From: an uncultured Collinsella sp.
GTDB taxonomy: Bacteria; Actinomycetota; Coriobacteriia; Coriobacteriales; Coriobacteriaceae
Assembly (NCBI GenBank): GCA_902494625.1
Contig: CABUUB010000001.1
Coordinates: 17,708-81,707 of the forward strand
DNA: 64,000 bases
Direction: 5' to 3'
In this document: in pieces, positions 11,001 through 56,300 of the stretch
How the letters are laid out: each line of letters opens with the position of its first letter
Numbering within the stretch: position 1 is the stretch's first letter
Translations under genes and position numbers: made by a program
The notes under the pieces: model-generated
What the model was told of the DNA's origin: nothing
Database searches by the model: none
Seen by the model: the letters and a program-made list of their open reading frames with translations, nothing else

Positions 11001-11045
11001 AAAACCACCACAAAGGGGACAGGCACCTTTGTGGTGGTTTTTGTT
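11001..11045. terminator. bidirectional hairpin terminator between convergent genes
   Basis: AAAA-CCACCACAAAGG-ggacaggcac-CCTTTGTGGTGG-TTTTTGTTTT. A near-identical hairpin lies inverted at 14434-14467. Confidence 0.65.
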
Positions 11046-12664: not shown

Positions 12665-14224
12665 ATGCGAAAGCAAATCCATGACAACTCAATCAACCGC
12701 GACCGCTCGTGCGCGCTCTCCCACGGAACGTGGCGTCGCGTGGGCGTCAAGCTCGTCTGCGCGGGGGCTTGCGCGCTCATGGCCGGCCAGCTGTTGCTAC
12801 CGAGTGTGGCACTCGCCGCCGAGTGGGTCAACGTGGGTGGCACGCAGTACAGCAAGGCCGCTGGCGACGATGCCGGAACCTGGTCCTGGGACGGCGCCGA
12901 CGACATGAAGCTCAGCGGCTACGACGGCGCCAGCATCAGCGCTCAGGGCAACCTCAACATTGACGTGGCAGGCACCAACACCATCACGGCCGACGCCAGG
13001 CAGAGCGCCATCGAGGTCAAGAACGGCAACCTCACCATCACGGGGGAGGGGGCCCTCAGCGCGACGGCCGAACGATGGTGGCGCAAGAGCGCTGTTAATG
13101 TCGAGTACGGTAACCTCGCCATCTCGGGCAACGTGACTCTCAACGCAACGGCCGGGACCGATACGATAGCGGTTTCGGGGGACGGCAAGACCGGCGGCGA
13201 CGTAGACATCCGCGGTGCCAACGTTAACGTGACGGCAGCGAACAATGTGCCTGATACCATCGGCATTCACACGCGGGCAGGCAACATAACTATTAGCGAG
13301 GGCGCCGACGTCCACGTCGAGGCAAATGGGCTCGACACAGCCATTGCAGTCTGTGCCGAAAACTACTCCTCCGAGCATGGAGGCTGCATCGCGGTGGATA
13401 ACGCAAAATTAAATGCGGAGGCGCGCAATGGGAACGGTGCGTCGCTCGCCCTGTATTCGGTTGGAAGCAAGACAGATTTATGTTTGAGTATTACCAACGG
13501 GGCGGATGTTACGCTCGTGGTGAGTGATAGGGCCGATGTTTTGGATGGTGTTTGGATGCGCGCGCAGGACGGCGTGTCGCGGGTGCTCGTCGAGAATTCG
13601 AACCTTACAGCTCGATGCGGTGACGGAACTGGCTACAGTCGTAAACATGGCTACGGAATATATTCCCAATCCAGCTCCCAGTCCGCCATCCCTCGAATTG
13701 ACATCATTAATTCAAATGTTGAGGCGTTGGGCTCTACGGCGGCAATCTACGCTGTCAATCTAGGTGATGCAGCCCCTTATCTTGCAATTGATGGCGGATC
13801 GGTAGTTACGACTCCCGCCGGCGGCACCGTGCGAGAAACTACGGGAAACGGACTCGTCATCGGTGCTGCCGGGTCGTCTACTATCCAGGATGTTAGGACT
13901 TCCGACGAGGTTGCCCGCAGCGTGGTAATCAGCTCCGGAGATGCGGTCGAGCCTGAGCCCACGCCGCAGCCTGAGCCCACCCCGGCTCCCACGCCGCAGC
14001 CAGGCGGCGGAAGTGAGACTGGCACGCCGTCCGTGACGCCGACTCAGGCGAGTTCCACGGCTGCTGCCTCCAAGCCGGCCGCGAAGGCCACCGCTGCCCA
14101 GAAGTCCGTGGGCACTCTGGCCGCCACGGGCGACAACGCCGCGACGGCGGCAGCGGCCCTTGGCATCGCCGGCGCAACCGTTGCCGCTGCCGGCATCGCC
14201 GCAACCAAGCGCCGCAAGCGCTAG
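12665..14224 (+). CDS. LAXTG-anchored cell-surface protein with a beta-helix-like repeat region
   Basis: Signal peptide (LVCAGACALMAGQLLLPSVALAAEW). Repeated GNLxIxG / GNVTLNA / GNITISEGADV strands. PEPTPQPEPTPAPTPQP linker. C-terminal LAATG, then a hydrophobic helix and KRRKR (sortase sorting signal, class-E type motif). Confidence 0.8.
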   Translation: MRKQIHDNSINRDRSCALSHGTWRRVGVKLVCAGACALMAGQLLLPSVALAAEWVNVGGTQYSKAAGDDAGTWSWDGADDMKLSGYDGASISAQGNLNIDVAGTNTITADARQSAIEVKNGNLTITGEGALSATAERWWRKSAVNVEYGNLAISGNVTLNATAGTDTIAVSGDGKTGGDVDIRGANVNVTAANNVPDTIGIHTRAGNITISEGADVHVEANGLDTAIAVCAENYSSEHGGCIAVDNAKLNAEARNGNGASLALYSVGSKTDLCLSITNGADVTLVVSDRADVLDGVWMRAQDGVSRVLVENSNLTARCGDGTGYSRKHGYGIYSQSSSQSAIPRIDIINSNVEALGSTAAIYAVNLGDAAPYLAIDGGSVVTTPAGGTVRETTGNGLVIGAAGSSTIQDVRTSDEVARSVVISSGDAVEPEPTPQPEPTPAPTPQPGGGSETGTPSVTPTQASSTAAASKPAAKATAAQKSVGTLAATGDNAATAAAALGIAGATVAAAGIAATKRRKR

Positions 14225-14262: not shown

Positions 14263-14398
14263 TCTCGATCTGTAACACCAAACCTGATAGTTGGGCTCTA
14301 GGTGTTACAGATTGAGACGAACTGTTCAGCCGCTAACCTAACGTCTCGATCTGTAACACGTGGCGAGGAATTTGGTCTCTAACTGTTACAGATTGAGA
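14263..14398. repeat. hairpin-array repeat, locus A (2 units)
   Basis: The 15-mer TCTCGATCTGTAACA and its complement occur at 14263, 14303, 14344 and 14384, alternating in orientation with 40/41-bp spacing. Confidence 0.9.
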
Positions 14399-14551
14399 CA
14401 AACGTCGGAATTGGTTCGCCGGCCAAGTCCCCGACCACCACAAAGGCGCATGTCCCCTTTGTGGTGATGGGTTGGCCGGCATAGAGAAAAGTCCCCGCCG
14501 GGCGTGTGCTCGACGGGGACTTTGCCGTTTGATGGCTAGCGCTGAGGGTGA

Positions 14552-15961
14552 TTACTCGCCCAGCAGGCTCTTGGTGATGGAAGCGGCGGCCTTCTTGCCG
14601 GCGCCCATCGCCAGAATGACCGTAGCGGCACCGGTGACGATGTCGCCGCCGGCCCAGATGCGGGGATCGGTGGTCTGGCCGGTCTCCTCGTCGGCGACGA
14701 TGTAGCCCCACTTGTTGAGCTCCATCTTGCCGCCGATCTTGGCAGCGAAGGGGTTGGCGTTGGTGCCGATAGCCGAGATCGCGACGTCGCAGGGGATCTC
14801 CTCGATGGCGCCCTCGATGGGCACCGGGCGACGACGGCCGGACTCGTCGGGCTCGCCGAGCTCCATCTTCTGGACCTTGACGGCGCACACGGAGCCGTCC
14901 TCGCCAGCGACAAACTCGAGCGGGGAAACGAGCGGCAGAACCTCGACGCCCTCGGCCTTGGCGTGGTGCAGCTCGGCACGACGGCAGGGCATCTCGTCTT
15001 CGGTACGGCGGTAAGCGATGATGGCGTGCTCGGCGCCCAGACGCTTGGCGGTACGGACGGCGTCCATAGCCACGTTGCCGCCACCAAAGACGACGACGTT
15101 CTTGCCGTGCTTGGTGGGGGTATCGTACTCGGGGAACTTGTTGGCCTTCATCAGGTTCACGCGGGTGAGGTACTCGTTCGCGAAGAAGACGTTGGGCAGG
15201 TTCTCGCCGGGGACGTTGAGGAACTTGGGCAGGCCAGCGCCGGTTGCCACGTAGATGGCGTCGAAGCCCTGCTCGAACAGCTCCTCGGCCGTGGCCATGT
15301 TGCCCACGACGGAGTTGTACTCAAACTTGACGCCCATGTCCTCAAGGCCGTCAATCTCACGCTTGACGACTGCCTTGGGCAGACGGAACTCGGGGATGCC
15401 GTAGACCAGCACGCCGCCGCCGGTGAAGAATGCCTCAAAGACGGTAACGTCAAAGCCGTTACGGGCGAGCTCGCCGGCGCAGGTGATGCCGGACGGGCCG
15501 GAGCCGACGACGGCGACCTTCTTGCCGTTCTTGGGGGCCATCTTGGGCGTGGAGGCGAGCTCGGGGCGATCACCCAGGAAGCGCTCGAGCTGGCCGATGG
15601 CCACGGGCTCGGACTTCTTACCACGGATGCACTTGCCCTCGCACTGGTTCTCCTGCGGGCAGACGCGGCCGCAGATGGCGGGAAGCATGGAGTCCTCGCG
15701 GATGGTATCGAGAGCGCCGCCGAAGTCCTTCGCGCGGATCTGCTCGATAAAGCGGGGGATGTTGATGTTGACGGGGCAGCCCTCAACACAGAACGGCTTC
15801 TTGCAGTTGAGGCAGCGCTCGGCCTCGGCCAGCGCCATCTCCTCGGTGAAGCCCTTGTCGACGGGGCGGAAGTCGCAGGCGCGCTCGGCAGCCGGCTCCT
15901 CGTTATCGGGGGTGCGGGGCGACTTCATATCGGCAACGAAACGACCGTTAACTAGTGGCAT
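14552..15961 (-). CDS. nfnB: NADPH-dependent glutamate-synthase-beta-like FeS flavoprotein; NfnB-type subunit
   Basis: 469 aa. N-terminal 2x[4Fe-4S] region (CLNCKKPFCVEGCP...CGRVCPQENQCEGKC), FAD/NAD folds (VAVVGSGPSGITCAGELA, VVVFGGGNVAMD) and a GltD-like C-terminus. It overlaps the upstream NfnA-like gene. Confidence 0.8.
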   Translation of the reverse strand: MPLVNGRFVADMKSPRTPDNEEPAAERACDFRPVDKGFTEEMALAEAERCLNCKKPFCVEGCPVNINIPRFIEQIRAKDFGGALDTIREDSMLPAICGRVCPQENQCEGKCIRGKKSEPVAIGQLERFLGDRPELASTPKMAPKNGKKVAVVGSGPSGITCAGELARNGFDVTVFEAFFTGGGVLVYGIPEFRLPKAVVKREIDGLEDMGVKFEYNSVVGNMATAEELFEQGFDAIYVATGAGLPKFLNVPGENLPNVFFANEYLTRVNLMKANKFPEYDTPTKHGKNVVVFGGGNVAMDAVRTAKRLGAEHAIIAYRRTEDEMPCRRAELHHAKAEGVEVLPLVSPLEFVAGEDGSVCAVKVQKMELGEPDESGRRRPVPIEGAIEEIPCDVAISAIGTNANPFAAKIGGKMELNKWGYIVADEETGQTTDPRIWAGGDIVTGAATVILAMGAGKKAAASITKSLLGE

Positions 15962-28552: not shown

Positions 28553-28595
28553 CCTGTTCCTCAAAACTGAAAAATTTTCGTTTTTGAGGAATAGG
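28553..28595. repeat. 43-bp AT-rich palindrome, copy 1
   Basis: cctgttcctcaaaactgaaaaattttcgtttttgaggaatagg. Confidence 0.9.
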
Positions 28596-28639
28596 ATTAA
28601 GGCAGCTCGGCCTTTCGCGAGGTATATTCGCTACAGAGT

Positions 28640-28680
28640 CTATTCCTCAAAACTGAAAATTTTTCAGTTTTGAGGAATAG
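28640..28680. repeat. 41-bp perfect palindrome, copy 2
   Basis: ctattcctcaaaactgaaaa-t-ttttcagttttgaggaatag (20-bp arms). Confidence 0.9.
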
Positions 28681-28706
28681 CGATAAAATACCGCGAGGAG
28701 GCCCCA

Positions 28707-29903
28707 ATGAAACTCATCAATAGAACGTCATATATGGACACGTTGACGAGCCTTATTGGCGTGCCGGACATCAAGGTCATCACGGGCATTCGGCGTAGCG
28801 GTAAATCAAAATTGCTCGAGGCCCTCCGCGATTACGTGGAGGCAAATCTGTCCAATTCGAATGTCATCCATATCAACTACAACCTCGATGAGTTCGAGGG
28901 CCTGCTCGAATATCATGCCCTGCTCGCCTATGTAAAAGAGCATCGAGTGTCCGGCAAGCAAAACTTCCTGCTTATCGACGAGGTTCAGATGTGCGACGGT
29001 TTTGAGCGTGCGATCAACAGCCTTCACGCATCCGAGCAGTACGATATCTTCATCACCGGATCGAATGCCTTTTTGCTGTCGAGCGATCTGTCGACGCTCT
29101 TTACGGGGCGCACCTTCGAGATCGAGGTTTTCCCATTCTCGTTTGAGGAGTATCGTCTCTATGGCGACGAGGGCGAGGTCGACCGCGACTTCGATGAGTA
29201 CGCGAGAACCGGCGGTATGTCTGGTTCTTACCCTTATCCACTGCAGGAGCAGCGCTATCAATATCTCTCCAACGTCTTTAAGACGCTCATTGTGAGAGAT
29301 ATCGTGCAGCGGCATAGCGTCAGAAACGAATTGGCACTGCTACGCATTGCCGATTACATGATGGACAACGTTTCCAACATTACGTCGGCGCGCAACATTA
29401 CGGACGCATTAAATGCGGATGGGCTAAAGATTACGAACAAGACGGTCGGCACGTACATGGGGTACCTGTGCGATGCGTTTGCCTTCTATAAAGTTCGTCG
29501 ATACGACATTCGCGGCAAGAAATACCTTAAGAGCGGTGAGAAGTATTACCTGGCGGATCATGCGTTTAAATATGCGCTTCTTGGTACACGTGATATGGAT
29601 TGGGGACGCGTATACGAGAACATGGTGGCAATCGAGCTGCTGCGTCGCGGATACGAGGTATACGTCGGCGTGCTCTATAAAAAGGAAATAGACTTTGTAG
29701 CAATCAAGCGAAGCGAGAAACTCTACATTCAGGTGAGCGACGACATCAGCTCGGATAAGACATTTGAACGCGAGATTTCGCCACTGCTGAGCATTGGCGA
29801 TGCGTATCCCAAGATGATTCTCGCCCGCACGCATCACGAGGCCACGGATCACGACGGAGTGCAAATCGTGGACCTGGCGAGGTGGCTGTGCGGCGAGGCC
29901 TAG
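28707..29903 (+). CDS. AAA+ ATPase (AAA_14 / DUF4143 architecture, COG1373-like)
   Basis: Walker A-like GIRRSGKS and Walker B LLIDEVQ. The C-terminal region YENMVAIELLRRGYEVYVG...KEIDFVAI...LYIQVS resembles a PD-(D/E)XK-type fold. Confidence 0.7.
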   Translation: MKLINRTSYMDTLTSLIGVPDIKVITGIRRSGKSKLLEALRDYVEANLSNSNVIHINYNLDEFEGLLEYHALLAYVKEHRVSGKQNFLLIDEVQMCDGFERAINSLHASEQYDIFITGSNAFLLSSDLSTLFTGRTFEIEVFPFSFEEYRLYGDEGEVDRDFDEYARTGGMSGSYPYPLQEQRYQYLSNVFKTLIVRDIVQRHSVRNELALLRIADYMMDNVSNITSARNITDALNADGLKITNKTVGTYMGYLCDAFAFYKVRRYDIRGKKYLKSGEKYYLADHAFKYALLGTRDMDWGRVYENMVAIELLRRGYEVYVGVLYKKEIDFVAIKRSEKLYIQVSDDISSDKTFEREISPLLSIGDAYPKMILARTHHEATDHDGVQIVDLARWLCGEA

Positions 29904-29910
29904 CAGAAAG

Positions 29911-29953
29911 CCTATTCCTCAAAACTGAAAAATTATCGTTTTTGAGGAATAGG
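29911..29953. repeat. 43-bp AT-rich palindrome, copy 3
   Basis: cctattcctcaaaactgaaaaattatcgtttttgaggaatagg, starting 8 nt after the ATPase stop codon. Confidence 0.9.
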
Positions 29954-30008
29954 ACCGATGCATTGCCTAGTTCGCCGCTCGCGCTCGTGCTCGACTTAAG
30001 CCCCCGCC

Positions 30009-30979: not shown

Positions 30980-31056
30980 TGCGGGGTGGAGCAGTCTGGT
31001 AGCTCGCCGGGCTCATAACCCGGAGGTCGTAGGTTCAAATCCTGCCCCCGCGACCA
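30980..31056 (+). tRNA. metZ: initiator tRNA-Met (CAT anticodon)
   Basis: 77 nt, a near-copy of the bacterial tRNA-fMet consensus (GCGGGGTGGAGCAGTCTGGTAGCTCGCCGGGCTCATAACCCGGAGGTCGTAGGTTCAAATCCTGCCCCCGCGACCA). The anticodon stem has three G:C pairs. Position 1:72 is weak (U:G). CCA is encoded. Confidence 0.9.
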
Positions 31057-31145
31057 AGAACTTGCAGCTCGTCGGCCTGGCCGGCGAGCTTTTTTGTTAT
31101 TTCGGGACCGTGTTTTCGGTCCAATCCTCGGCCTCTCAAACAAAA

Positions 31146-31361
31146 TCTCGATCTGTAACATCTAGACCCGATTTGGGCGGCTAGGTGTTACAGATCGAGA
31201 TGTTTCGGCAGGATGGTCTTCGTTTGTCTAAATCTGTAACACGAGGGACGGATTTTGCCGAGTTACTGTTACAGATTGAGATTTTCTAGCAGGCGGGTCC
31301 CGTTTGTCTCGATCTGTAACATCTGGGGCCCATTTTGCCGAGTAACTGTTACAGATCGAGA
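31146..31361. repeat. hairpin-array repeat, locus B (3 units)
   Basis: 15-mer arms at 31146, 31186, 31227, 31267, 31307 and 31347, alternating in orientation with 25-nt spacers. Confidence 0.9.
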
Positions 31362-31399: not shown

Positions 31400-32281
31400 T
31401 CAGGAACTCATCCAGGAATACATCGAGTAGATCGTTTTTCGCTGCGGCAGCCAGGCGGCGGCAATCGTCATTTCGGTCGATTTGCCTTCTATGGGAATCG
31501 CGACGACTTTGCCGTTGGTGGGAAACGCCTGCGTGAGATATCCCGGCAGCAGCGCGTAGCCCAAACCGGCGGCGACGCACAGCACGCTCGTCTCGACGTC
31601 TTCGGACACATAGGCAATCTTGGGATGCTCTTCAATCTTGGCAAGCGTGGTCGCGATCGCTTCCGATTCGCCGTACCCGCTGGCTCCGCGTGTAGCGTCG
31701 ACGATTGGATACCCCTTAAGGTCCTCGATACAGATCGACTGTCGGTGGGCGAGCGGGTGGTCGAGCGGCACCACGGCGTGCAGCGGGTAGGACCTCAAGA
31801 CCTGCCACTGCATATCGGACATGCGGTACTCGTTGTAGAGCAGGTTAATGCATACGTCGATATCTTCTCGGCGCAGTGCGTCGTAGAGCTCCGAGACGTT
31901 GTCGCGCATAAAGCTTAGCCGGACGTTGGGATAGCTCTTATGAAACCCAAACAGCATGTCGGCGAGATCGGTCCGTTCGTATCCCTTGATGTAGCCGACC
32001 TTGAGCTCGCCTTCGGGCATGTCGTCTGCCGCCCGCGCGCGCCTTACGGCCTCGGTGGTTCGTGCGACAATCGCACGGGCATCATCAAGGAACAGGGCTC
32101 CCGCCACCGTAAGCTCAACGTGATGGTTGTCGCGTTCGAACAACTGCTTTCCCACGGCGCGCTCGAGCGCCGCGATCTGGTTGGAAATCGTTGCCTGCGA
32201 AACAAAGAAATCCTTGGCGACTTTCGAAAAAGAGCGCGCCTCGGCCACGGCTATAAAGTACTCCAGCTGTTTGATGCGCAT
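31400..32281 (-). CDS. LysR-family transcriptional regulator
   Basis: N-terminal HTH MRIKQLEYFIAVAEARSFSKVAKDFFVSQATISNQIAALE plus a LysR substrate-binding domain. RBS GGAGAA. Confidence 0.85.
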   Translation of the reverse strand: MRIKQLEYFIAVAEARSFSKVAKDFFVSQATISNQIAALERAVGKQLFERDNHHVELTVAGALFLDDARAIVARTTEAVRRARAADDMPEGELKVGYIKGYERTDLADMLFGFHKSYPNVRLSFMRDNVSELYDALRREDIDVCINLLYNEYRMSDMQWQVLRSYPLHAVVPLDHPLAHRQSICIEDLKGYPIVDATRGASGYGESEAIATTLAKIEEHPKIAYVSEDVETSVLCVAAGLGYALLPGYLTQAFPTNGKVVAIPIEGKSTEMTIAAAWLPQRKTIYSMYSWMSS

Positions 32282-32423
32282 AGTTCTCCGTACATTAGAT
32301 TTCCTTATCACGTAATGCATAGATTAGCGCAAACGCCCAGCGTTTTCCCTTCTATGATTTAGGAACGGTTATTTGCGTGCGTATCGACAACACCGCAAAT
32401 TTCTTTTGAAGAGAGGGATCTCG

Positions 32424-39330: not shown

Positions 39331-40644
39331 CTATTTGCGACAGTGCAGGTCGGCGCTGGTGCGGGGCTTAATCCTCGGCTCAAGAAAGCCAAGGTAGATT
39401 AGGGTACGAATCGAGAGGTGGAACAAAAAGAGGTCCTCTCCCGATGCCAGGTCGTTACCTGTGATTTCCTTTATGCGGTTTAGGCGATAGAGCAACGTGT
39501 TCTTGTGAAGCGACAAGATCGCGGCAGTGCGCGCCGTGTTGCAGCTGTGTTGCATAAAGGCAAAGAGTGTCTCGACCAGCTCGGAATCGTGCGACTGGTC
39601 ATGCTCCCAAAGTGCCCAGATTGCCGGATGGCAGTAGTTCATAAGGTTGATGTGGTCGTTGCAGATGTCGAGCATCTCCATGTAGGTGTATTCGCAATAG
39701 CGATACACATGGGTGTCTTCGAGGATTTTGGTAAAGGTCGAGCCGTAGCGAATGGCGGCGCGTGCCTGATTGAGGTGCGAACGCACATCCGTTGCCTGGG
39801 AAAACTCATTGCTGATGCCGACAAACAGGTTGTTTGCGGCGGCGACGCGCGCAAGGATCGCCTCGTCGTTGGCAGGTAGCTGCGTGGAGGGCGGACGGCT
39901 TACCAACGCCACGAGCTCACCCTCGTACATGGTGATAAGGCTATGGTGCAGCAGCGGCTGCAATTGTCCTCGGATGCTCTCCGCCTCGCGCGCCTCGATC
40001 TGGGAATCCTTTTTGAGCAGGCATACAACGTAGAGGGCGGGAAGCGGCGCAAAGCCGACGAGCTGCATTTTGCGTGTGCAGGTAATGGGGTTGGGGATTT
40101 CGTCGTCTAGGAGGCGCGAGAGAAAATATGGTCCCTGTTGCGGGCCGCCCAACGAAAGAAAGCCGCCTTTCTGCAGCTCTTGTGCGAGCAGTCGGACAAA
40201 GAACTCAAAGACTTCGAGATCGCTATCGCCAAAGGCGTGATTGCGCTCGATCATCATCACCCGGCCCAGGCACGTGCCGTGCACCTTGATCGCCCCGGTC
40301 ATGGTGTTGAGGCAGAACATGTCGTTATACCGTGTGAGCGGGCCTGTCGAGCGGGCGATCTTCTCGTCTAAGCCGCGTTCGATGATGTAGCGCACGGCTT
40401 CGTCTTGCAGTATGTCGCCTTCGGAGAGCTCGGCGCGGGTGATGGCTGCAAAGGGGGAGTCGTCGGCATCGTCGAGCTCAAAGCCGCCGCGAGCGGCGTA
40501 GCGGTAGACGGGATCGACGACGAGCACCGGGTTGTCCATAACGGTAGAAGCTGTTTGCGTGAGGCTCTTGAGCCCCGCGTCGCTCAAGAGCGCCTCGAGC
40601 AGCGCTTGCTTTGCGGTGGACCTATCGGTGGTGCTCGGTTGCAT
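39331..40644 (-). CDS. PucR/CdaR-family transcriptional regulator
   Basis: C-terminal PucR HTH (NTARTAAILSLHKNTLLYRLNRIKEITG) plus a GGDEF-like middle domain. Start chosen at the ATG after GAAGGGA. Confidence 0.8.
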   Translation of the reverse strand: MQPSTTDRSTAKQALLEALLSDAGLKSLTQTASTVMDNPVLVVDPVYRYAARGGFELDDADDSPFAAITRAELSEGDILQDEAVRYIIERGLDEKIARSTGPLTRYNDMFCLNTMTGAIKVHGTCLGRVMMIERNHAFGDSDLEVFEFFVRLLAQELQKGGFLSLGGPQQGPYFLSRLLDDEIPNPITCTRKMQLVGFAPLPALYVVCLLKKDSQIEAREAESIRGQLQPLLHHSLITMYEGELVALVSRPPSTQLPANDEAILARVAAANNLFVGISNEFSQATDVRSHLNQARAAIRYGSTFTKILEDTHVYRYCEYTYMEMLDICNDHINLMNYCHPAIWALWEHDQSHDSELVETLFAFMQHSCNTARTAAILSLHKNTLLYRLNRIKEITGNDLASGEDLFLFHLSIRTLIYLGFLEPRIKPRTSADLHCRK

Positions 40645-40784
40645 GGTTGTCCCTTCTGCCGCGTCTTCGCCGTAGTCGACGCATGACCAAATTATTATCG
40701 CAGGCTGCACAGCATTAGGTTGTTTAAAACGATGAGTGTGGCGGTCGTTTCCTCGAACGGGGCGGCGTTGTTGCTGGGGGGTCG

Positions 40785-40999
40785 TCTCAATCTGTAACAG
40801 GTGGAGGCCAAAAGTCGGTCTAGATGTTACAGATTGAGATGTTTGGTCGGACCGAGTTTGTTCGTCTCGATTTGTAACATCTAGGGTCGTTTTTGGTCTG
40901 TAGGTGTTATAGATCGAGATTTTCCGACGGAACGCTCCCGTTTGTCTCGATCTGTAACAGTAAGACCCGGTTTTGCTGAGTAACTGTTACAGATCGAGA
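40785..40999. repeat. hairpin-array repeat, locus C (3 units)
   Basis: 15-mer arms at 40785, 40825, 40865, 40905, 40945 and 40985: an exact 40-bp phase with alternating orientation. Confidence 0.9.
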
Positions 41000-41141
41000 C
41001 AAACCGACGGGCCGCCCTGCCCCATCCACCTGCCGCCACCTGATATTCGCCGATTTTCGTTGTGCCGCTGTGCCCCCATGCCATATCCTCTAGACAACTA
41101 CGCGGCATCATCGCCGCCGCGCCTACAAGAGAGGAATGTCC

Positions 41142-43172
41142 ATGACCGCACCTGCATCCAAGCTGCTCCAGCCCATTACGGTTGGCCCCCTTGAGCTCAA
41201 AAACCGCATTATGTTTCCGCCGCTGACTACCGGCTACGAGGAGCGTGACGGTTCCATCGGCGAGCGCAGCCTGGCTTTTTACGAGCGCTTGGCCCGTGGC
41301 GGCGTGAGTTACATCGTCATCGGCGACGTTGCTCCCGTCATGACCGCAAGCCCCACGCCCAAGCTGGCGACCGACGCCCAAATCCCCACGTTTAAGGCCC
41401 TGGCCGATGCCGTCCACAAGCACGGCGCCAAGGTCGCGCTGCAGCTGTTCCACCCCGAGTACGACGTGCCCGGTGTCGGCCGCATGGTCATGGGTTCCAT
41501 GGCCGCCGCCAAGGCCGCGCAGGAGGCCAAGGCCGCCGGCGACGAGGAGGCCTTTGCCGCCAAGATGGCCGAGTCCAACGAGATCCGCAATCAGGCCTAC
41601 GCCAAGCTGCACCACGACATGCAGCACTTTGTGAACGAGGCCAGCGTGGATCAGCTCACCCAGATCAAGGAGGCCATCGCTGCCTCGGCCGCCCGCGCGC
41701 AGCAGGCCGGCATCGACGCCATCGAGGTCCACGGCGACCGTCTGGTGGGTTCGCTGTGCTCCGCGATCCTCAACCAGCGCACCGACGAGTACGGTGGCTC
41801 GTTCGAGAACCGCGTCCGCTATGCGCTCGAGGTCGTCGCTGCCATTAAGGAAGCCGCGCCGCAGCTGATGGTGGAGTACAAGCTCCCCGTGATCATGGAG
41901 AACCCCGACGGCACGCCGCGCGGCAAGGGCGGCTTGCAGCCCGACGAGGCCTGCGAGTTCGCCAAGCTGCTCGAGGGCGCGGGCATCGATATGATCCAGG
42001 TCGCGCAGGCCAACCACACCGGCAACATGGGCGACACCATTCCGCCCATGGGTGCCATGCCCTACAACTGGACGCTGCCCGTGGCCGAGCGCGTCAAGGC
42101 CCTGGTCTCCGTGCCGGTGGCAACCGTCGGCCGCGTGGTCTCGGTCGAGGCCGGCGAGAAGATTCTGGAAGACGGCGCCGCCGACATCATCGCCTACGGC
42201 CGCTCGCTCATGTGCGACCCCGACATTGCGCTGAAGGCCGCCACGGGCGAGCCCATCCGCGAGTGCCTCAACTGCAACAAGGGTTGCGTCGACGCGATCC
42301 AAAACCGCAAGTACATCTCGTGCGTGCTCAACGCCGAGAACGGTGACGAGGCGACCATCGCCATCAAGCCGGGCGAGGGCGACAAGAAGATCGCCGTGGT
42401 GGGCGGCGGTATTGCCGGCCTGGAGGCCGCACGCGTGGCGGCCAAGCGCGGCTACGACGTGACCATCTACGAGGCGAGCGATCACTTGGGCGGCCAGATT
42501 GTGCTGGCGGCTGCGCCTCCGCGCAAGGACGAGATCATGCGCTCGGTCGAGTACTACGAGAAGATTCTGCCTGGCCTGGGCGTGAAGGTTGAGCTCAACC
42601 ACGTCGCTAGCCCCGCGGACCTCAACGCCGCCGACGCCGCGATTGTGGCTGTGGGCGCACACGACGTGATCATCCCCGTTCCGGGTGCCGACTCGGAGAA
42701 GGTCGTCTCGAGCTGGGACGTGCTGGCCGGCAAGGTGGAGCTCAGCGGCCGCGTCGCCGTCATTGGCGGTGGCCTGGTGGGCACCGAGACTGCCGAGTAT
42801 CTGCTGCAGCACGGCTGCGAGGTGGCGATCGTGGAGATGCTCGACAAGATTGCCGCGGGCGAGTCCGAGACCATTCTGCCGCTGATTATGAGCGACTTTG
42901 CCGAGCACAACGTGGAGCAGCACGTGAAGACCCGTCTGACCGCCATTGCCGACGAGGGCGTGGAGGCCATTCGCACCACCGAGGACGGCGCCGAGGAGCC
43001 GGTGAAGATCGCCTGCGATTACGTGGTGATGGCCGTGGGCTCCAAGGCCAACGCGTTTGATCTGGACGGCGTGACGGTGCCCGTGACCTGCGTGGGCGAC
43101 TGCTCGGGTGAGCGCACCGCCGACATCGCGAGCGCCATTCGCACGGCGTATCACGCGGCCAACGAGCTGTAG
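41142..43172 (+). CDS. Old-Yellow-Enzyme / 2,4-dienoyl-CoA-reductase-type enoate reductase (FMN TIM barrel, [4Fe-4S], FAD/NAD(P) domain)
   Basis: LKNRIMFPPL, HGDRLVGSLCS, the Cys cluster CLNCNKGCVD...C, then VAVVGGGIAGLEAA and VAVIGGGLVGTETA Rossmann motifs. The ATG at 41136 is also possible. Confidence 0.8.
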   Translation: MTAPASKLLQPITVGPLELKNRIMFPPLTTGYEERDGSIGERSLAFYERLARGGVSYIVIGDVAPVMTASPTPKLATDAQIPTFKALADAVHKHGAKVALQLFHPEYDVPGVGRMVMGSMAAAKAAQEAKAAGDEEAFAAKMAESNEIRNQAYAKLHHDMQHFVNEASVDQLTQIKEAIAASAARAQQAGIDAIEVHGDRLVGSLCSAILNQRTDEYGGSFENRVRYALEVVAAIKEAAPQLMVEYKLPVIMENPDGTPRGKGGLQPDEACEFAKLLEGAGIDMIQVAQANHTGNMGDTIPPMGAMPYNWTLPVAERVKALVSVPVATVGRVVSVEAGEKILEDGAADIIAYGRSLMCDPDIALKAATGEPIRECLNCNKGCVDAIQNRKYISCVLNAENGDEATIAIKPGEGDKKIAVVGGGIAGLEAARVAAKRGYDVTIYEASDHLGGQIVLAAAPPRKDEIMRSVEYYEKILPGLGVKVELNHVASPADLNAADAAIVAVGAHDVIIPVPGADSEKVVSSWDVLAGKVELSGRVAVIGGGLVGTETAEYLLQHGCEVAIVEMLDKIAAGESETILPLIMSDFAEHNVEQHVKTRLTAIADEGVEAIRTTEDGAEEPVKIACDYVVMAVGSKANAFDLDGVTVPVTCVGDCSGERTADIASAIRTAYHAANEL

Positions 43173-50365: not shown

Positions 50366-53300
50366 ATGGGTAAGTACACGAGGGGTCTCTTGGCGGTGAT
50401 ACTGGCCGTAGTGCTGGTATTGCCGGCTGCAGCATTTGCCATGCTGCCCGAGGCCAACGCCAGGTCCAGCACAGGAATGGACGGACCGGAAGCGACAAAG
50501 ATAGTCGACCACGACACCAGCAACCATTGGAAGTTCTGGGCGGGCGGCTATGACGGCAGCAAGGTCACGACGCAAAACGTCGGCCGAATTTGGACGGATA
50601 AGACGGTCCAAGCAATCGATGACGGGAAATCGGACTTTTTGACTACGCTTTCGGCGATGTCTTCGACATCCGATACGACGTCGCTGGTTTCCAAGCCGCT
50701 CGACATCGTGATGGTGCTCGATGCCTCTGGCTCAATGGATGATCCTATGGGTGGTAAAGGGTCCCCTAAGCGTATCGTTGCGCTCAAGAATGCTGCCAAC
50801 CACTTTATCGACACCATTGCCGAGCAAAACAAGAACGTTAAGGACGCGAGCAAGCAGCACCAGGTTGCCATCGTAAAGTTTGCGGGCAAGAAGAGCGATA
50901 AGGTTGGTAATGATACCTATCGCGACGACGGCAACACCTACAACTACTCCCAGACCATGTTGGGCCTCACGGTCTGCAAGGATGGGGGCGCAAAGAGCCT
51001 CAAGAACACGGTTAATTTAATCGAGCCTGCTGGCTCTACTCGTGCCGACTATGGCATGGACCTGGCCAAGGGCATCGCTGGTCGTGAAGACGCCCAGAAG
51101 ATCGTTGTGTTCTTCACCGATGGCTCTCCTACGAGTTCTAATGGTTTTGAGGCCGAGGTTGCTAAGGATGCCATCAATATCGCCAAGACCATAAAGAGTG
51201 GCGGGGCGACCATTTATACCATCGGTATCTTCAACGGTGCGAAGCCGGGCGACGATCCAACAAGCAGCCGCACGAGCAACGAGAATAAATTCATGCATGC
51301 CGTGTCGAGTAACTATCCGGATGCCACATCGTCCGTAAGCCATGGCTTTTTTGGAACTGAGGAGTGGAATGTCAATTTCGGCAACCCCGTTGCCGGTGCT
51401 AGCTACTACAAGTCGGCGACCAACGCCGCCGAGCTTGATCAGGTCTTTAAGGACATCTCGAGTGCCATTACGTCGGGCAAGGGTTTCCCGACCAAGGTCG
51501 AGGGCAACAATCCCAACGGTTCCGGCTACATCACATTCGAGGACGAGCTGGGCGCCTTTATGCAGGTCGATAGCTTTACCGGTGCCGAGTACAACGGCAA
51601 GACCTATGGGGCCGCCACCAAGTTGACCGATGGCAATATCGATACCTATACGTTTGATGGCGAGCTCGCGCATCTTGTAATTACGGTTGATCGCGCGGAC
51701 GAGAACAATCCGCAGCGCGGCGACATCGTGACGGTCAAGGTCCCCGCATCGCTCATTCCGCTGCGCCGTTTTACCGTTGACGAGTCTGCGGGCACGTTTG
51801 TGGTTGACTCCACGGATGCCATCTCGCCTATCCGCGTTGCGTATGCATCGAGCGTAAAGGCTATTGCACGCAAAAACCTGTTTACTCCCAATAACGTACC
51901 GGGACTGCAGGATTACATCAATGAGCACAAGGACGCCGATTCCAATACCGTTAGCTTCTACGCCAACAAGTGGACCGGCGACGACGTGGGCGATACGGTC
52001 GCGAGCTTTGAGCCTGCTGCCACGAACAGCTACTACTACTTCCAAAAGCTAACGCCCGTCTATACGGATGCGGCTTGCACCAAGCTTGCAACGGAAAAGC
52101 CTTCGGGCTCTAAGACCTATTGGTACAAAGATGAGTTTATGGCGCAGAACTCGTCGGGCGCGCCGTACGATGATTCCGTTTCGATCCCGGTTAAGGGAAG
52201 CGAGCTCGAGAGCTTTGAAGGCGCTTTGGTAAAGGACGGCGATCACTGGTCGATTAAGGCTGGTACTGCGCGCCTCGCCTATATTAATCAGCTCCACACC
52301 ACCAAGGAGCGTGTGGGCGGAAACCCGACGGACACCGCACGCGACGTGATCAATCCCCAGTGGAACAACACGAAGGTTGTTTCTGGTGCGACGAAGGTCA
52401 ATGTCTACCTGGGCAATAACGGCAAGATTAGCTTTACGCTCAATACCACGCCGACAACGTTGACAACTGCCGACTTTGGCCTGACCAAGGTGCTCGAGGG
52501 CCGCGACTGGACGGATGAGGACAAGTTTGAGTTTGGCCTGACGTCCGAGGACAACGCCCCGATGCCCAGGTCCACGACTGCGTTTGCAACCAAGGGCCAT
52601 GCGGACATTAGCTTTGGCGAGATTGCCTATGACAAGCCGGGCACGTATGTCTACAAGGTTAGCGAGAAGCATGCCGGGACCACGGTCGACGGCATCGCCT
52701 ACAGCAAGAACGTTGCAGAGTTCACCGTAACGGTGACACCCAACGCAAAGGGAAAGCTCGAGGCTTCTGTGAAGAAGACCTCGGGCGAGGTCGAGTTCAA
52801 GAACACCTATACCGCCAATCCCGCTGAGTCGAGCGTCACCGATCAGATTACAGTTACCAAGGTCCTGACCGGCCATAAGCTCCAGGACAATGAGTTCTCC
52901 TTTGAGCTCGTTGAGGGTGAGGGCGAGGACGCGTCGGTTGTCGAAACCGTTAAGAATGATGCCAACGGCAACGTTGCGTTCAGCGCCATCAAGTACACCG
53001 AGATCGGTCAGCACATCTATACGCTGCGCGAGGTCAAGGGCAATGCCGGCGGCATCGCCTACGACAAAACCGTCTATACCGTCGTGACGACCATCGCCGA
53101 CAATGGCAAGGGCCAGCTTGTGGCCACGCATAAGCTGAAGGGCGCCGAGGACGTCAAGAAGATTGAGTTCAAGAACTCCTACACCGTGACGCCCAAGAGC
53201 TCCAGCGTCACCGACCAGATCACCGCGACCAAGTCCCTGACCGGGCGCAAGCTTGCCGCCGGCGAGTTCTCCTTCGAGCTCGTCGAGGGCGACAAGGTCG

Positions 53301-56300
53301 TCGCCACCGGCACCAACGACGCCAGCGGTAACATCACGATGGGCACCGTCAAGTATGACAAGGCCGGAACGCATACCTACACACTGCGCGAAGTCAACGG
53401 CGGAACCACCAGCAAGGGCATCGCCTACGACGGCAAGACTTACACCATCGTGACCACCATCACCGATAAGGGCGACGGCACGCTCAAGGCCGAGCATGTC
53501 CTGAAGGATGCCAAGGCTGCCGAGTTCAAGAATTCCTACAATCTGACCCCCACTGAGTCCAGCGTCACCGACCAGGTCAAGGCGACCAAGTTCCTGACCG
53601 GGCGCGCGCTTGCCGCCGGCGAGTTCTCCTTCGAGCTCGTCGAGGGCGACAAGGTCGTCGCCACCGGCACCAACGACGCCAGCGGCAACATCACGATGGG
53701 CGCCGTGAAGTACACCGAGGCCGGCAAGCACACCTACACACTGCGCGAGGCCAAGGGCGGAACCACCAGCAAGGGCGTCTCCTATGACGCCAAGACCTAC
53801 ACCGTCGTGACCACCGTTACCGACAGGGGCGACGGCACGCTCGCGGTCAAGCATGAGCTGAAGGACGCTGGGACCGCCGAGTTCAAGAATTCCTACACCG
53901 TGACGCCCGAGGACTCCAGCGTCACCGACCAAGTCACCGCGACCAAGTTCTTGGACGGCCGTGACCTCAAGGCCGGAGAGTTCCGTTTTGAGCTCGTCGA
54001 GGGCAGTAACGTAGTTGCCACCGGCACTAACAACGCCGACGGCAAGATTGTGATGGATCCCGTCACCTACACCGCTGCCGGCGAGCACATCTACACGCTG
54101 CGCGAGACCAAGGCCGGCGCCACCGAGAACGGCATCACCTACAGCGCCGCCGAGTACACCATCGTGACCACGGTCACGGACAACGGCGACGGTACCCTCA
54201 GCGTGGAGCATAAGCTGCAGAACGACGAGAAGGCGACCTTCGAGAACGCCTATACGGTGACCCCCAAGAGCTCCAGCGTCACCGACCAGATCACCGCGAC
54301 CAAGGTCTTGACCGGCCGCGACCTCAAGGAAGGCGAGTTCTCCTTCGAGCTCGTCGAGGGCGACAAGGTCGTCGCCACCGGCAAGAACGCCGCCGACGGC
54401 AAGATCACGATGGGCGAGATCGCCTACAACGAGCCCGGCAAGCACACCTACACGCTGCGCGAGGTCCCGGGCGACGCCGGCAACGGCATCACCTACGACG
54501 GCAAGACCTACACTATCGAGACGACCGTCACCGACAACGGCAAGGGCGAGCTCGTGGTAAAGCATGAGCTGAATGGAGCCGACGAGGCGAAGTTCAACAA
54601 CGGCTACAAGCCGAATCCTGACGAGTTCAGCGTCACCGACCAGATCACCGCGAATAAGGTCCTGACCGGACGCGAACTTGCTGCCGGCGAGTTCAGCTTC
54701 GAGCTCGTCGAGGGTGAGGGCGAGGATGCCAAGGTCGTCGCCACCGGCAAGAACGCCGCCGACGGCACGATTACGATGAGCCCCGTGAAGTACGACAAAC
54801 CCGGCAAGCACACTTACACGCTGCGCGAGGTCAACGGTGGAACCACCAGCAAGGGCATCACCTACAGTGACGCCAAGTACACTATCGAGACCACCATCAC
54901 CGACAACGGCGACGGCACCCTCAAGGCCGAGCATGTCCTGAAGGACCCCGAGGCTGCGACCTTCAAGAACACCTACAGCGTGACCCCGCTCGATGCAGAG
55001 CTCGACTTTGACCTGAGCAAGGTCATCAGCGGCCGCGAGTGGACGGATGGGGACGAGTTCAGCTTTACCATTACCGCCCCCGATGGCGCCCCGCTCCCCG
55101 ATCCTGCGACCGTAACCGTGAGCAAGCACGATGCGAAGGACGGCATTGCCGCCATCAAGTTCGGCAAGATTCGCTACACGGCCACCGGAACCTACAAGTA
55201 CGAGATCCGCGAGAACGCGGGCAGCACGGTCGGCATGACGTATGACGCGCATGTCGCAACCGCCGAAGTGACCGTGACCGAGAACGGCGATGGCAGCCTG
55301 ACCGCCAACGTCACCAAGAAGGAAAACGGACGCTTTACCAACACGTACCACACTGAGCTTAACTACACCGCGGCCGGCGGTCTGTGGCTCAGCAAGTATC
55401 TGGACGGCCGCCCCATGACCGAGGGTCAGTTCACCTTTACCGTGACACCTGCTGACGATGCTTCGGCTCGCGCGCTCGGTCTGCTGCCCGGGGCTAATAG
55501 CTTCAAGTCCCCCGCAGCGGCAGAGGCAACGGTCGGACTGATCGACATTCTGGCTGGTCATGAGGTTATATTTACGCAGGCTGACGCCGGCAAGACCTTT
55601 ACGTACACCGTGGCCGAGAAGAACGACGGCCAGCCCGGTTACACCTACGACGACGCCGTGCGCACGGTGACGATCGCCATCGCCGACGACACCGCCGGCA
55701 CGCTCACTGCTACGACGACCGTTTCCGGCGGTCCCGAGGGCACGCATGAGACGGTCCACAAGAGTGGCGAGAACAAGGTCGAGAAGGCCCTGGTGCCGTT
55801 CCACAACAGTTACAGCGCTACGACCAACACGCCTGGCGGCACCGCCGCTCAGGTCGTTGCCACCAAGACTCTGACCGGCCGCCCGATGGCCGACGGCGAG
55901 TTCTGGTTCGGCATCGCCTATCAGGGTGAGCTTGTGGCATACGAAAACCTCAAGCCCAATATCGGCGGGCACGTGAGCTTTGATACGCTGCACTACGACA
56001 CTAAGATGCTTGCTAATCTTGAGGCTGCTGGGCTTGCCCATCGTACCGACAAGGACGGTAAGCTTGCCTGGACCATTAACTATACGGCCTACGAAGATTT
56101 ATTCGGGCTGCCGAATGGCGTTTCCGCTACAACGTGGAGCTTTGGCTTTAAGGTTATCGTCGTCGACAACGGTGACGGTACCCTGACGGCAACGGTCGAC
56201 TACGGCGGCGTCGAGCCCTTGTTCGAGAACGTCTACGGCGCCGAAGCCGTCGATGCCGCGCTCACCGGCACTAAGAAGCTCCAAGCTGCCGAGGGCCTGA

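Follow-up and report, generated by a model that had tools for sequence, protein, structure and literature searches.

An apparently undescribed, genus-wide family of interspersed mosaic repeats in Collinsella

Introduction

Is an intergenic array of inverted repeats that can be drawn as a row of hairpins maintained as a hairpin, as an RNA, or as a series of sites on duplex DNA? The question is raised by positions 31146-31361 of a stretch of 64,000 nucleotides from an uncultured Collinsella sp. (GenBank assembly GCA_902494625.1, contig CABUUB010000001.1, positions 17,708 to 81,707 of the forward strand; the whole stretch is referred to here as the window). A preliminary description of this DNA, made from the sequence alone, had reported a 15-bp motif in alternating orientation, phase-locked in 80-bp hairpin units, and had suggested an undescribed intergenic repeat family. 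Here, the array is found to belong to a real, genus-wide and apparently undescribed family of interspersed mosaic repeats, in which the 15-bp arms are the conserved element and behave as independent sites and not as pairing partners.

Three arrays in the window

The 15-bp motif TCTCGATCTGTAACA (the arm) has 16 matches in the window at two mismatches or fewer, compared with 0.04 expected, and none of 100 shuffles of the window attained this number. All of the matches lie inside three loci, and the 16 arms make up eight units in three arrays. In the array under study (array B, 31146-31361), the motif and its reverse complement alternate at 31146, 31186, 31227, 31267, 31307 and 31347, exactly as first reported. 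The first arm (31146-31160, + strand) is followed by a 25-nt loop module (31161-31185) and a reverse arm, and the three units formed in this way, B1 (31146-31200), B2 (31227-31281) and B3 (31307-31361), are separated by linker modules of 26 nt (31201-31226) and 25 nt (31282-31306). The loops in the window are all 25 nt and the linkers are 25 or 26 nt, the single 26-nt spacer that had been noted in array B being the linker at 31201-31226.

The recurrence of the same architecture in the same phase at two further loci was also borne out, and the counts of 16 arms and eight units agree. Array A (14263-14398) consists of two units, A1 (14263-14317) and A2 (14344-14398), with a 26-nt linker (14318-14343) between them, and array C (40785-40999) of three units, C1 (40785-40839), C2 (40865-40919) and C3 (40945-40999), with 25-nt linkers.

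A repeat family found throughout Collinsella

A scan of species-representative genomes with the pattern ATCTGTAACA-N23-27-TGTTACAGAT returned at least 120 matching loci and, among the matches listed, essentially all belong to Collinsella, C. aerofaciens among them, and come from isolates as well as metagenome-assembled genomes. The repeat family is genus-wide in Collinsella, and the motif is not confined to the three loci of the window, as it might have been; the guess of Coriobacteriia is upheld, the repeats being present throughout this genus. Together with the window, the 120 listed loci contain 374 units in 147 arrays of 1-8 units each. One of the loci, L035 (CAVCBD010000014.1), bears the title 'Acutalibacteraceae bacterium' and has arrays and genes typical of Collinsella, so that the contig has probably been mis-binned.

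The family was sought among those already catalogued. When the window and 17 other loci were compared with Rfam 15, only tRNAs reached the gathering score, and at E values of up to 10 the only further matches were to generic microRNA-hairpin models, far below their thresholds; Collinsella-1 (RF01700) was not matched. No searchable paper contains the arm sequences, no paper on repetitive extragenic palindromic (REP) sequences, miniature inverted-repeat transposable elements (MITEs) or REP doublets forming hairpins (REPINs) in Collinsella was found in the literature searched, and a catalogue of structured RNAs from the gut gave no match in the first 200 of its supplementary files. The suggestion that the family is undescribed thus agrees with its absence from Rfam 15 and from the searchable literature. 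Sites of the parS, attC and LexA types were also considered and do not fit in either sequence or geometry.

Anatomy and spacing of the unit

Of 356 distances from a forward arm to the next reverse arm, 353 are 40 bp, and the distance from a reverse to the next forward arm is 39, 40 and 41 bp in 7, 136 and 90 cases, respectively. The phase lock seen in the window is therefore not random spacing, as the 40-bp register also holds across the 120 other Collinsella loci. Because every array opens with a forward arm and closes with a reverse arm, and because single units occur, the basic unit is arm-loop-arm (55 bp) and the linker serves as a junction. Only 16 orphan arms were seen, most of them beside arrays.

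Conservation of the arm is approximately 94-100 % at each position except position 4 (C in 82 %) and position 5 (G or A, approximately 50:50). The family profile widens the arm to about 25 bp, with TCTCRATCTGTAACA preceded by G-W-W-T-R and followed by K-C-T-A-G, conservation running outwards as the former and inwards as the latter. The information content of the arm is approximately 26.5 bits, or approximately 33 bits when the flanks are included. The arm, TCTCGATCTGTAACA, has no internal dyad and the potential for pairing lies only between two neighbouring arms.

The loops have a common layout, in which TAG/CTA at the arms gives way to shoulders rich in G/C and these to a centre with three or four consecutive A or T, in either orientation. 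Their length is fixed (25 nt in 353 of 356) and their sequences are diverse; 319 of the 374 are distinct, as are all 30 of those in the C. aerofaciens record NZ_OY725717.1 that is considered below. Hence, of the semi-conserved loop with a T-rich apex that had been described, the A/T run at the apex stands, but it is A-rich about as often as T-rich (the apex of C1 is A-rich) and the conservation is loose. Linkers have A/T triplets beside both arms and a G/C-rich centre. Subfamilies of both loops and linkers recur at unrelated loci; for example, the C3 loop resembles that of unit 4 in L026, and a linker starting 'cattcgaattccc...' is found at two unrelated sites. The strongest harmonic in the A/T content of the variable parts is 10.0 bp, which weakly supports bending or wrapping of the DNA.

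Arms are conserved without selection for pairing

Array B can be folded as three hairpins at -47.6 kcal/mol as DNA (z = -8.2), a strength that is trivial because the arms are inverted repeats. When the 148 distinct units were examined, the arms did not covary, with 90.1 % of cells paired compared with 90.9 % in shuffled pairings, 500 of 500 shuffles being as high, and a covariation score of 0.069 compared with a shuffled mean of 0.080. At position 5 of the arm, 75 % of combinations are pairable both in the observed and in the shuffled units, and G-C, A-T, G.T and A.C combinations occur as would be the case for independent arms. Positions in the loop and the flank pair below chance, the stem is not extended into the loop, and the loops are no more stable than shuffled ones (-11.6 vs -11.1 kcal/mol). 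A hairpin under selection was rejected on the basis of the covariation tests and the loop-folding control.

The strand was assessed in several ways. The apex run (A or T) is the same in 110 and different in 91 pairs of neighbouring units and, in arrays that lie between two co-directional genes, the run on the sense strand is of A in 59 and of T in 45 cases. The orientation of each of the three A/T tracts is unrelated to that of the others, and mismatches between arms are G.T in 169 and A.C in 163 cases overall, and 63 and 56, respectively, on the sense strand. The element acts irrespective of strand and there is no selection for pairing, which together speak for DNA that is recognised as a duplex rather than for a structured RNA. 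What remains of the '80-bp hairpin unit' is that the array can physically fold; as a selected structure it is not supported, given the lack of covariation, of stem extension and of strand dependence.

Turnover and mosaicism

Differences in length between orthologous arrays cluster at multiples of 80 bp and reach 480 bp, and 1-8 units are found per site across orthologues. The loci orthologous to array B, which were retrieved via the LysR-family gene, provide an example. The conserved left border is formed by the tRNA-Met gene (30980-31056, + strand) with its terminator and the conserved right border by the gene for the LysR-family regulator (31400-32320, - strand), and between these borders, which are approximately 90-95 % identical, relatives carry 2, 3 or 4 units with varied combinations of loops and linkers.

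Identity between orthologous arrays is highest in the arms (97.5 %), followed by the linkers (93.2 %), the loops (89.8 %) and the proximal flank (87.8 %). A loop has been swapped between conserved flanks in 15 of 266 orthologous pairs and a linker between conserved loops in 41 of 273 pairs, and the breakpoints of these module exchanges fall in the arms. One 26-bp linker, located between two inverted arms, has been cleanly inverted (L098 at approximately 7058 compared with L003, L009 and L030; 88 % identity for the reverse complement vs 69 % for the direct comparison), and both adjacent loops retain their orientation. Flip-flop inversion of loops was also considered and was rejected, as it was found in 0 of 266 orthologous pairs. 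Recent tandem duplicates are evident in L013, L011 and L036, and arrays have also been carried along in gene duplications, as in the paralogues of L010 and the triplicated lac region of NZ_OY725717.1.

No clean empty site was found among the orthologous loci, the only near-empty allele being a truncated unit common to two genomes. This truncated unit, consisting of one arm and a loop, lies at the 3' end of an Nramp gene (NZ_OY725717.1, 422700-423540; L093, approximately 414-452), where six other species hold 2-4 units, and in C. aerofaciens TSDC17.2-1.1 a copy of IS200/IS605 directly adjoins it.

Copy number and placement

The 126 arrays with usable flanks fall into 31 orthologous sites, from which the Chao1 estimate is approximately 49 sites. 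For an estimate of the number per genome, NZ_OY725717.1 (C. aerofaciens TSDC17.2-1.1, 899,693 bp) was scanned whole and contains 13 arrays and 30 units. This record (L152-L169) is labelled 'plasmid 6', yet it bears rpoBC, ribosomal protein operons, recA, ftsK and dnaE and must therefore be a piece of the chromosome. Its first 400 kb are free of arrays, five lie at 402-421 kb and three in the triplicated lac region at 751-761 kb. Extrapolation to an assumed genome of approximately 2.4 Mb gives approximately 35 arrays and 80 units, and each genome is estimated to have about 30-50 arrays, or roughly 80-130 units, at conserved intergenic sites. The expectation that the genome holds many more copies is correct at this scale but not at that of hundreds to thousands, and the window, with three arrays in 64 kb, is a dense region.

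All of the arrays are intergenic. Using a crude gene caller, 35 were placed between convergent, 35 between divergent and 42 between tandem genes, and in NZ_OY725717.1, for which the RefSeq annotation was used, the numbers are five convergent, five tandem and three divergent. Arrays often lie within approximately 100 bp of a contig end (e.g. in L024 and L053, and in the metagenomic viral contigs L131 and L132), and for loci other than contigs of the L131/L132 type the apparent end may be just the boundary of the fetched stretch. A link to phages was rejected, as GenBank phages contain no arm match and, of 12 matches in IMG/VR, two are chance matches in low-GC phages and the rest, many of them at the ends of contigs, resemble DNA of the Collinsella host or of prophage borders.

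Interpretation of the arrays

The strand symmetry, the independence of the arms and the mosaic turnover are best accounted for by a mosaic DNA repeat similar in kind to the bacterial interspersed mosaic elements (BIMEs) and the intergenic mosaic elements of Neisseria (NIMEs), in which the arms are putative duplex recognition sites for a protein and the arrays are remodelled by recombination at the arms. We place the probability of this reading at approximately 0.5, and a protein-binding array or REP/BIME-like element was also the reading preferred in the preliminary description. Each arm would be read sequence-specifically on double-stranded DNA by a putative trans-acting protein, which may resemble a recombinase or transposase or else be a binder of the nucleoid type. 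A protein-DNA complex with two-fold symmetry may, through its geometry, account for the fixed spacing and for the A/T tracts in the centre of the loop and along the outer borders of both arms. The gain and loss of whole units, the mosaic make-up and the occasional inversions would result from recombination, or from slippage during replication, between arms, and the uniformity of the arms may be kept by this same process or by selection for binding.

A more specific proposal, offered tentatively and with the odds against it, is that the arrays are loading or binding platforms on which a Collinsella-specific DNA-binding or recombination protein, reading the 15-bp arm on duplex DNA, would assemble in the 40-bp register on bent DNA, and that they form a new system, restricted to one part of the chromosome, for structuring the chromosome or for site-specific 'module-shuffling'. 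The last part is touched on by a single 0.9-Mb stretch with 400 kb that are free of arrays and clusters elsewhere.

Several points weigh against arms that serve as protein recognition sites. No binding protein or recombinase has been identified. The approximately 33 bits per arm are far in excess of the approximately 15 bits that, by calculation, would be needed for about 200 arms in a 2.4-Mb genome, so that part of the uniformity of the arms must come from common descent or gene conversion; indeed, these could explain it without any protein. Many of the array counts are not independent, because no more than about 31 sites, in species that are close relatives, account for the 147 arrays. A hairpin that tolerates one mismatch would be compatible with the missing covariation, and the 10-bp periodicity in A/T content is just marginally above other harmonics. 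Finally, a weak excess of 3-4-bp direct repeats at the array edges (61 vs 45.6 and 42 vs 27.4) could hint at transposition, although it is not significant after reduction to the approximately 31 sites.

Alternative explanations

The first alternative is a non-autonomous mobile element of the REPIN or REP type, where the unit would form a hairpin in single-stranded DNA that is copied by an HUH tyrosine transposase similar to the REP-associated tyrosine transposases (RAYTs), and the arrays would be clusters of such doublets. REPINs are vertically inherited and long-persisting and the RAYT genes are single-copy and flanked by REPINs (PMC3337134). The Collinsella elements share the persistence and are likewise extragenic only, related loop and linker types are found at different loci (the C3 loop and that of L026 unit 4, the 'cattcgaattccc...' linker), and the weak excess of direct repeats at the array edges is in keeping with mobility. 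However, no Y1 transposase was detected in the six-frame open reading frames (ORFs) of the 120 loci and the window (0.85 Mb of array-proximal DNA), which is weak evidence, and the only Y1 genes in NZ_OY725717.1 belong to two identical copies of an ordinary IS200/IS605 element that has its own hairpin ends and is not flanked by arms. The dedicated RAYT/IS200-like transposase that had been proposed was therefore not recovered near the arrays or in this 0.9-Mb record, and both C. aerofaciens IS200 copies are unrelated to the arms. In addition, the arm is not itself a palindrome and does not covary, the 30 distinct loops among 30 in one 0.9-Mb record are not those of a population around a master sequence, and there are only approximately 30-50 sites, conserved across species and with no clean empty site. 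We regard mobility of this type as unlikely.

One gene was considered as the analogue of a RAYT. It encodes a protein of approximately 356 aa and, in nine species, has an array close to each of its two ends (L013:5028-6095, with orthologues in L019, L041, L054, L056, L072, L076, L088 and L103; also NZ_OY725717.1 412152-413228). The protein has no match in Pfam, NCBIfam or PDB, and a single-sequence AlphaFold model was unusable (predicted local distance difference test score 35.6). The candidate was rejected, as the site is not over-sampled, a paralogue has an AbiEi-like N-terminus, and the family comprises 4,801 representatives across public data; because the family is so large, the protein is probably not specific to the arrays.

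Under the second alternative, to which we also attach a low probability, the arrays are passive and satellite-like, an ancestral 80-bp unit having been spread by segmental duplication and its arms homogenised by slippage, unequal crossing-over and gene conversion, with the arrays merely tolerated and no dedicated protein involved. The length steps of 80 bp, the recent tandem duplicates in L013, L011 and L036, the arrays carried in the duplicated L010 genes and the lac triplication, and an information content of the arm beyond the need for binding would all follow from such a process. Gene conversion alone, however, leaves unexplained why only the arms should be homogenised over approximately 40 dispersed sites, and it accounts neither for loops that are fixed in length (25 nt in 353 of 356) while free in sequence nor for A/T tracts and TAG/CTA at fixed positions in either orientation.

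A structured RNA is very unlikely. In this case the units would be transcribed hairpins that act as stabilisers of mRNA 3' ends, as terminators or as a processed small-RNA array. The predicted folding of array B (-47.6 kcal/mol, z = -8.2) would suit such a role, as would the mismatches between arms in the window, which are all G.U-compatible on the + strand, and the partial strand consistency of mismatches within arrays (47 pure arrays vs 28 expected, from counts that are not independent). The G.U-compatible pattern, though seen throughout the window, does not generalise, since across the family G.T and A.C mismatches are balanced, on the sense strand as well as overall. The arms do not covary, the orientation of the loops is random relative to genes and to neighbouring units, arrays are equally common between divergent and convergent genes, and the Rfam comparison gave only the sub-threshold microRNA-hairpin models, RF01700 being unmatched. 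The stems are also without a T run after them, and array B lies behind a canonical terminator, that of the tRNA-Met gene (31066-31090, + strand), which is followed by a T run. As this intrinsic terminator intervenes, transcription of tRNA-Met probably ends upstream of array B. A terminator scan found only this one and none in the array, and with arrays between divergent genes equally frequent, the earlier view that the array is not a simple terminator is supported.

A MITE, where each 55-bp unit would be a miniature transposon moved by a DDE transposase, is highly improbable even though 15-bp inverted termini bound every unit around a short variable core and are its best conserved part, as transposase binding sites would be, given that there is no consistent target-site duplication, that the strict 80-81-bp register is not one of independent positions, that sites are shared between species and none has an empty allele, and that no insertion sequence (IS) bearing the arms was found (in the chunk at 150-200 kb of NZ_OY725717.1 and at its two IS200 copies).

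The arms were compared with IS termini in NZ_OY725717.1, which has annotated members of the IS21, IS30, IS256, IS3, IS110, IS1249, IS1595 and IS200 families. In its IS-rich chunk at 150-200 kb (two IS21, one IS30), the sole arm-like match is a chance one inside a coding sequence, nothing was found at the IS copies, and the ends of the two IS200 copies differ from the arm; nothing at these copies supports a role as IS termini. Target duplication was rejected, as there was no convincing or consistent case and the flank profile is symmetric and not direct.

Comparison with known repeat systems

The BIMEs of Escherichia coli are clusters of REP sequences, also known as palindromic units, and bind IHF, gyrase and Pol I on DNA. 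A REP is an imperfect palindrome of approximately 35 bp (about 20-40 bp) that is able to form its own stem-loop. The Collinsella arrays resemble BIMEs in that a short extragenic repeat is present in alternating orientation, in that there is a small set of separating motifs that differ between head-to-head and tail-to-tail junctions, and in that conserved sites hold different numbers of units in different strains. They differ in that the arm is only 15 bp, is non-palindromic and has no sequence similarity to REP, the register is stricter (40 bp +/-1), the copy number is lower (approximately 30-50 arrays), and no RAYT was found.

In the NIMEs, the 20-bp self-palindrome dRS3 (ATTCCC-N8-GGGAAT) flanks RS blocks of variable length (19-214 bp); the arrays are syntenic and variable in repeat number and show a regular G+C wave, and dRS3 has been proposed to be a recombinase binding site (PMC1797815). 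Here too, a conserved short punctuation repeat stands between many families of variable blocks, families of modules are common to several loci, and syntenic arrays differ in repeat number and show a regular wave in base composition. This likeness is in kind only, as the sequences are unrelated, and the Collinsella punctuation is an asymmetric 15-mer in alternating orientation with blocks fixed at 25-26 bp. The REPINs (PMC3116915, PMC3337134) share with the Collinsella units a pair of inverted repeats around a spacer, complementary ends, higher-order tandem clusters, inheritance by vertical descent and persistence over long times. However, each REP of a REPIN is palindromic and the Collinsella arm is not, the arms show no covariation, the spacers are highly diverse with no master sequence, and no RAYT was found. 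Three traits set the Collinsella arrays apart from all of these systems: a 15-mer that is asymmetric, a strict register of 40 bp, and modules of fixed size (25-26 bp).

Clustered regularly interspaced short palindromic repeats (CRISPR) also consist of short conserved repeats with a regular period and variable segments of fixed length. However, the orientation of the Collinsella repeats alternates, their spacers show conserved TAG/CTA, G/C shoulders and A/T tracts and fall into families, and the arrays, of 1-8 units, are found at approximately 40 dispersed sites. With one exception, the neighbours of the window arrays have ordinary Pfam domains, and neither a Cas protein nor a transposase is among the Pfam-matched genes. 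Array A lies between convergent genes, a 519-aa ORF (12665-14224, + strand) that is the exception, being unannotated and without a Pfam match, and an oxidoreductase gene (14552-15961, - strand), array B is located between the terminator of the tRNA-Met gene and the end of the LysR-family gene, and array C is in the divergent promoter region between genes for a PucR-type regulator (39331-40710, - strand) and a flavin oxidoreductase (41136-43172, + strand). That the array is not a CRISPR, as had been argued from its alternating orientation and conserved spacers, is therefore supported.

Significance

In the human gut, Collinsella is abundant and, for a genus, unusually diverse, and no interspersed repeat family has apparently been described for it. 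The variation in unit number between close relatives provides ready-made markers for strain typing. The arrays may break short-read assemblies and may cause spurious 'breakpoints' in metagenomic analyses. Collinsella is prominent among the 'HGT (horizontal gene transfer) insertion sites' recorded elsewhere (PMC7771070), and it is a speculation that arrays contribute spurious breakpoints at these sites. The family also separates two traits of REP-like elements that are usually confounded, as conservation of an inverted repeat is present and selection for a hairpin is absent, a combination that points to a protein which reads duplex DNA at a strict 40-bp register. Finding the protein that binds the arms would make it possible to tell whether the BIME- and NIME-like arrays of distant phyla share a logic, as recombination platforms or in nucleoid organisation, or are look-alikes.

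Other repeats in the window

A second hairpin family, CCACCACAAAGG-N8-CCTTTGTGGTGG, has seven matches compared with 0.75 expected. The hairpins are terminator-like and located at gene ends, and often directly adjoin arrays; they were found in the window at 11005-11037 and 14435-14467 and also in L010, L022, L034, L121 and L124. A 44-bp palindrome, CCTATTCCTCAAAACTGAAAAATTTTCGTTTTTGAGGAATAGGA, is present in three copies in the window (28553-28596, 28639-28682 and 29911-29954), and these flank a gene for an ATPase with AAA_14 and DUF4143 domains (28707-29903), in which the G+C content at third codon positions is below that of the neighbouring genes. Lastly, an ORF of 2,436 aa at 50366-57676 contains tandem repeats of 357 nt (119 aa) and probably encodes a cell-surface protein.

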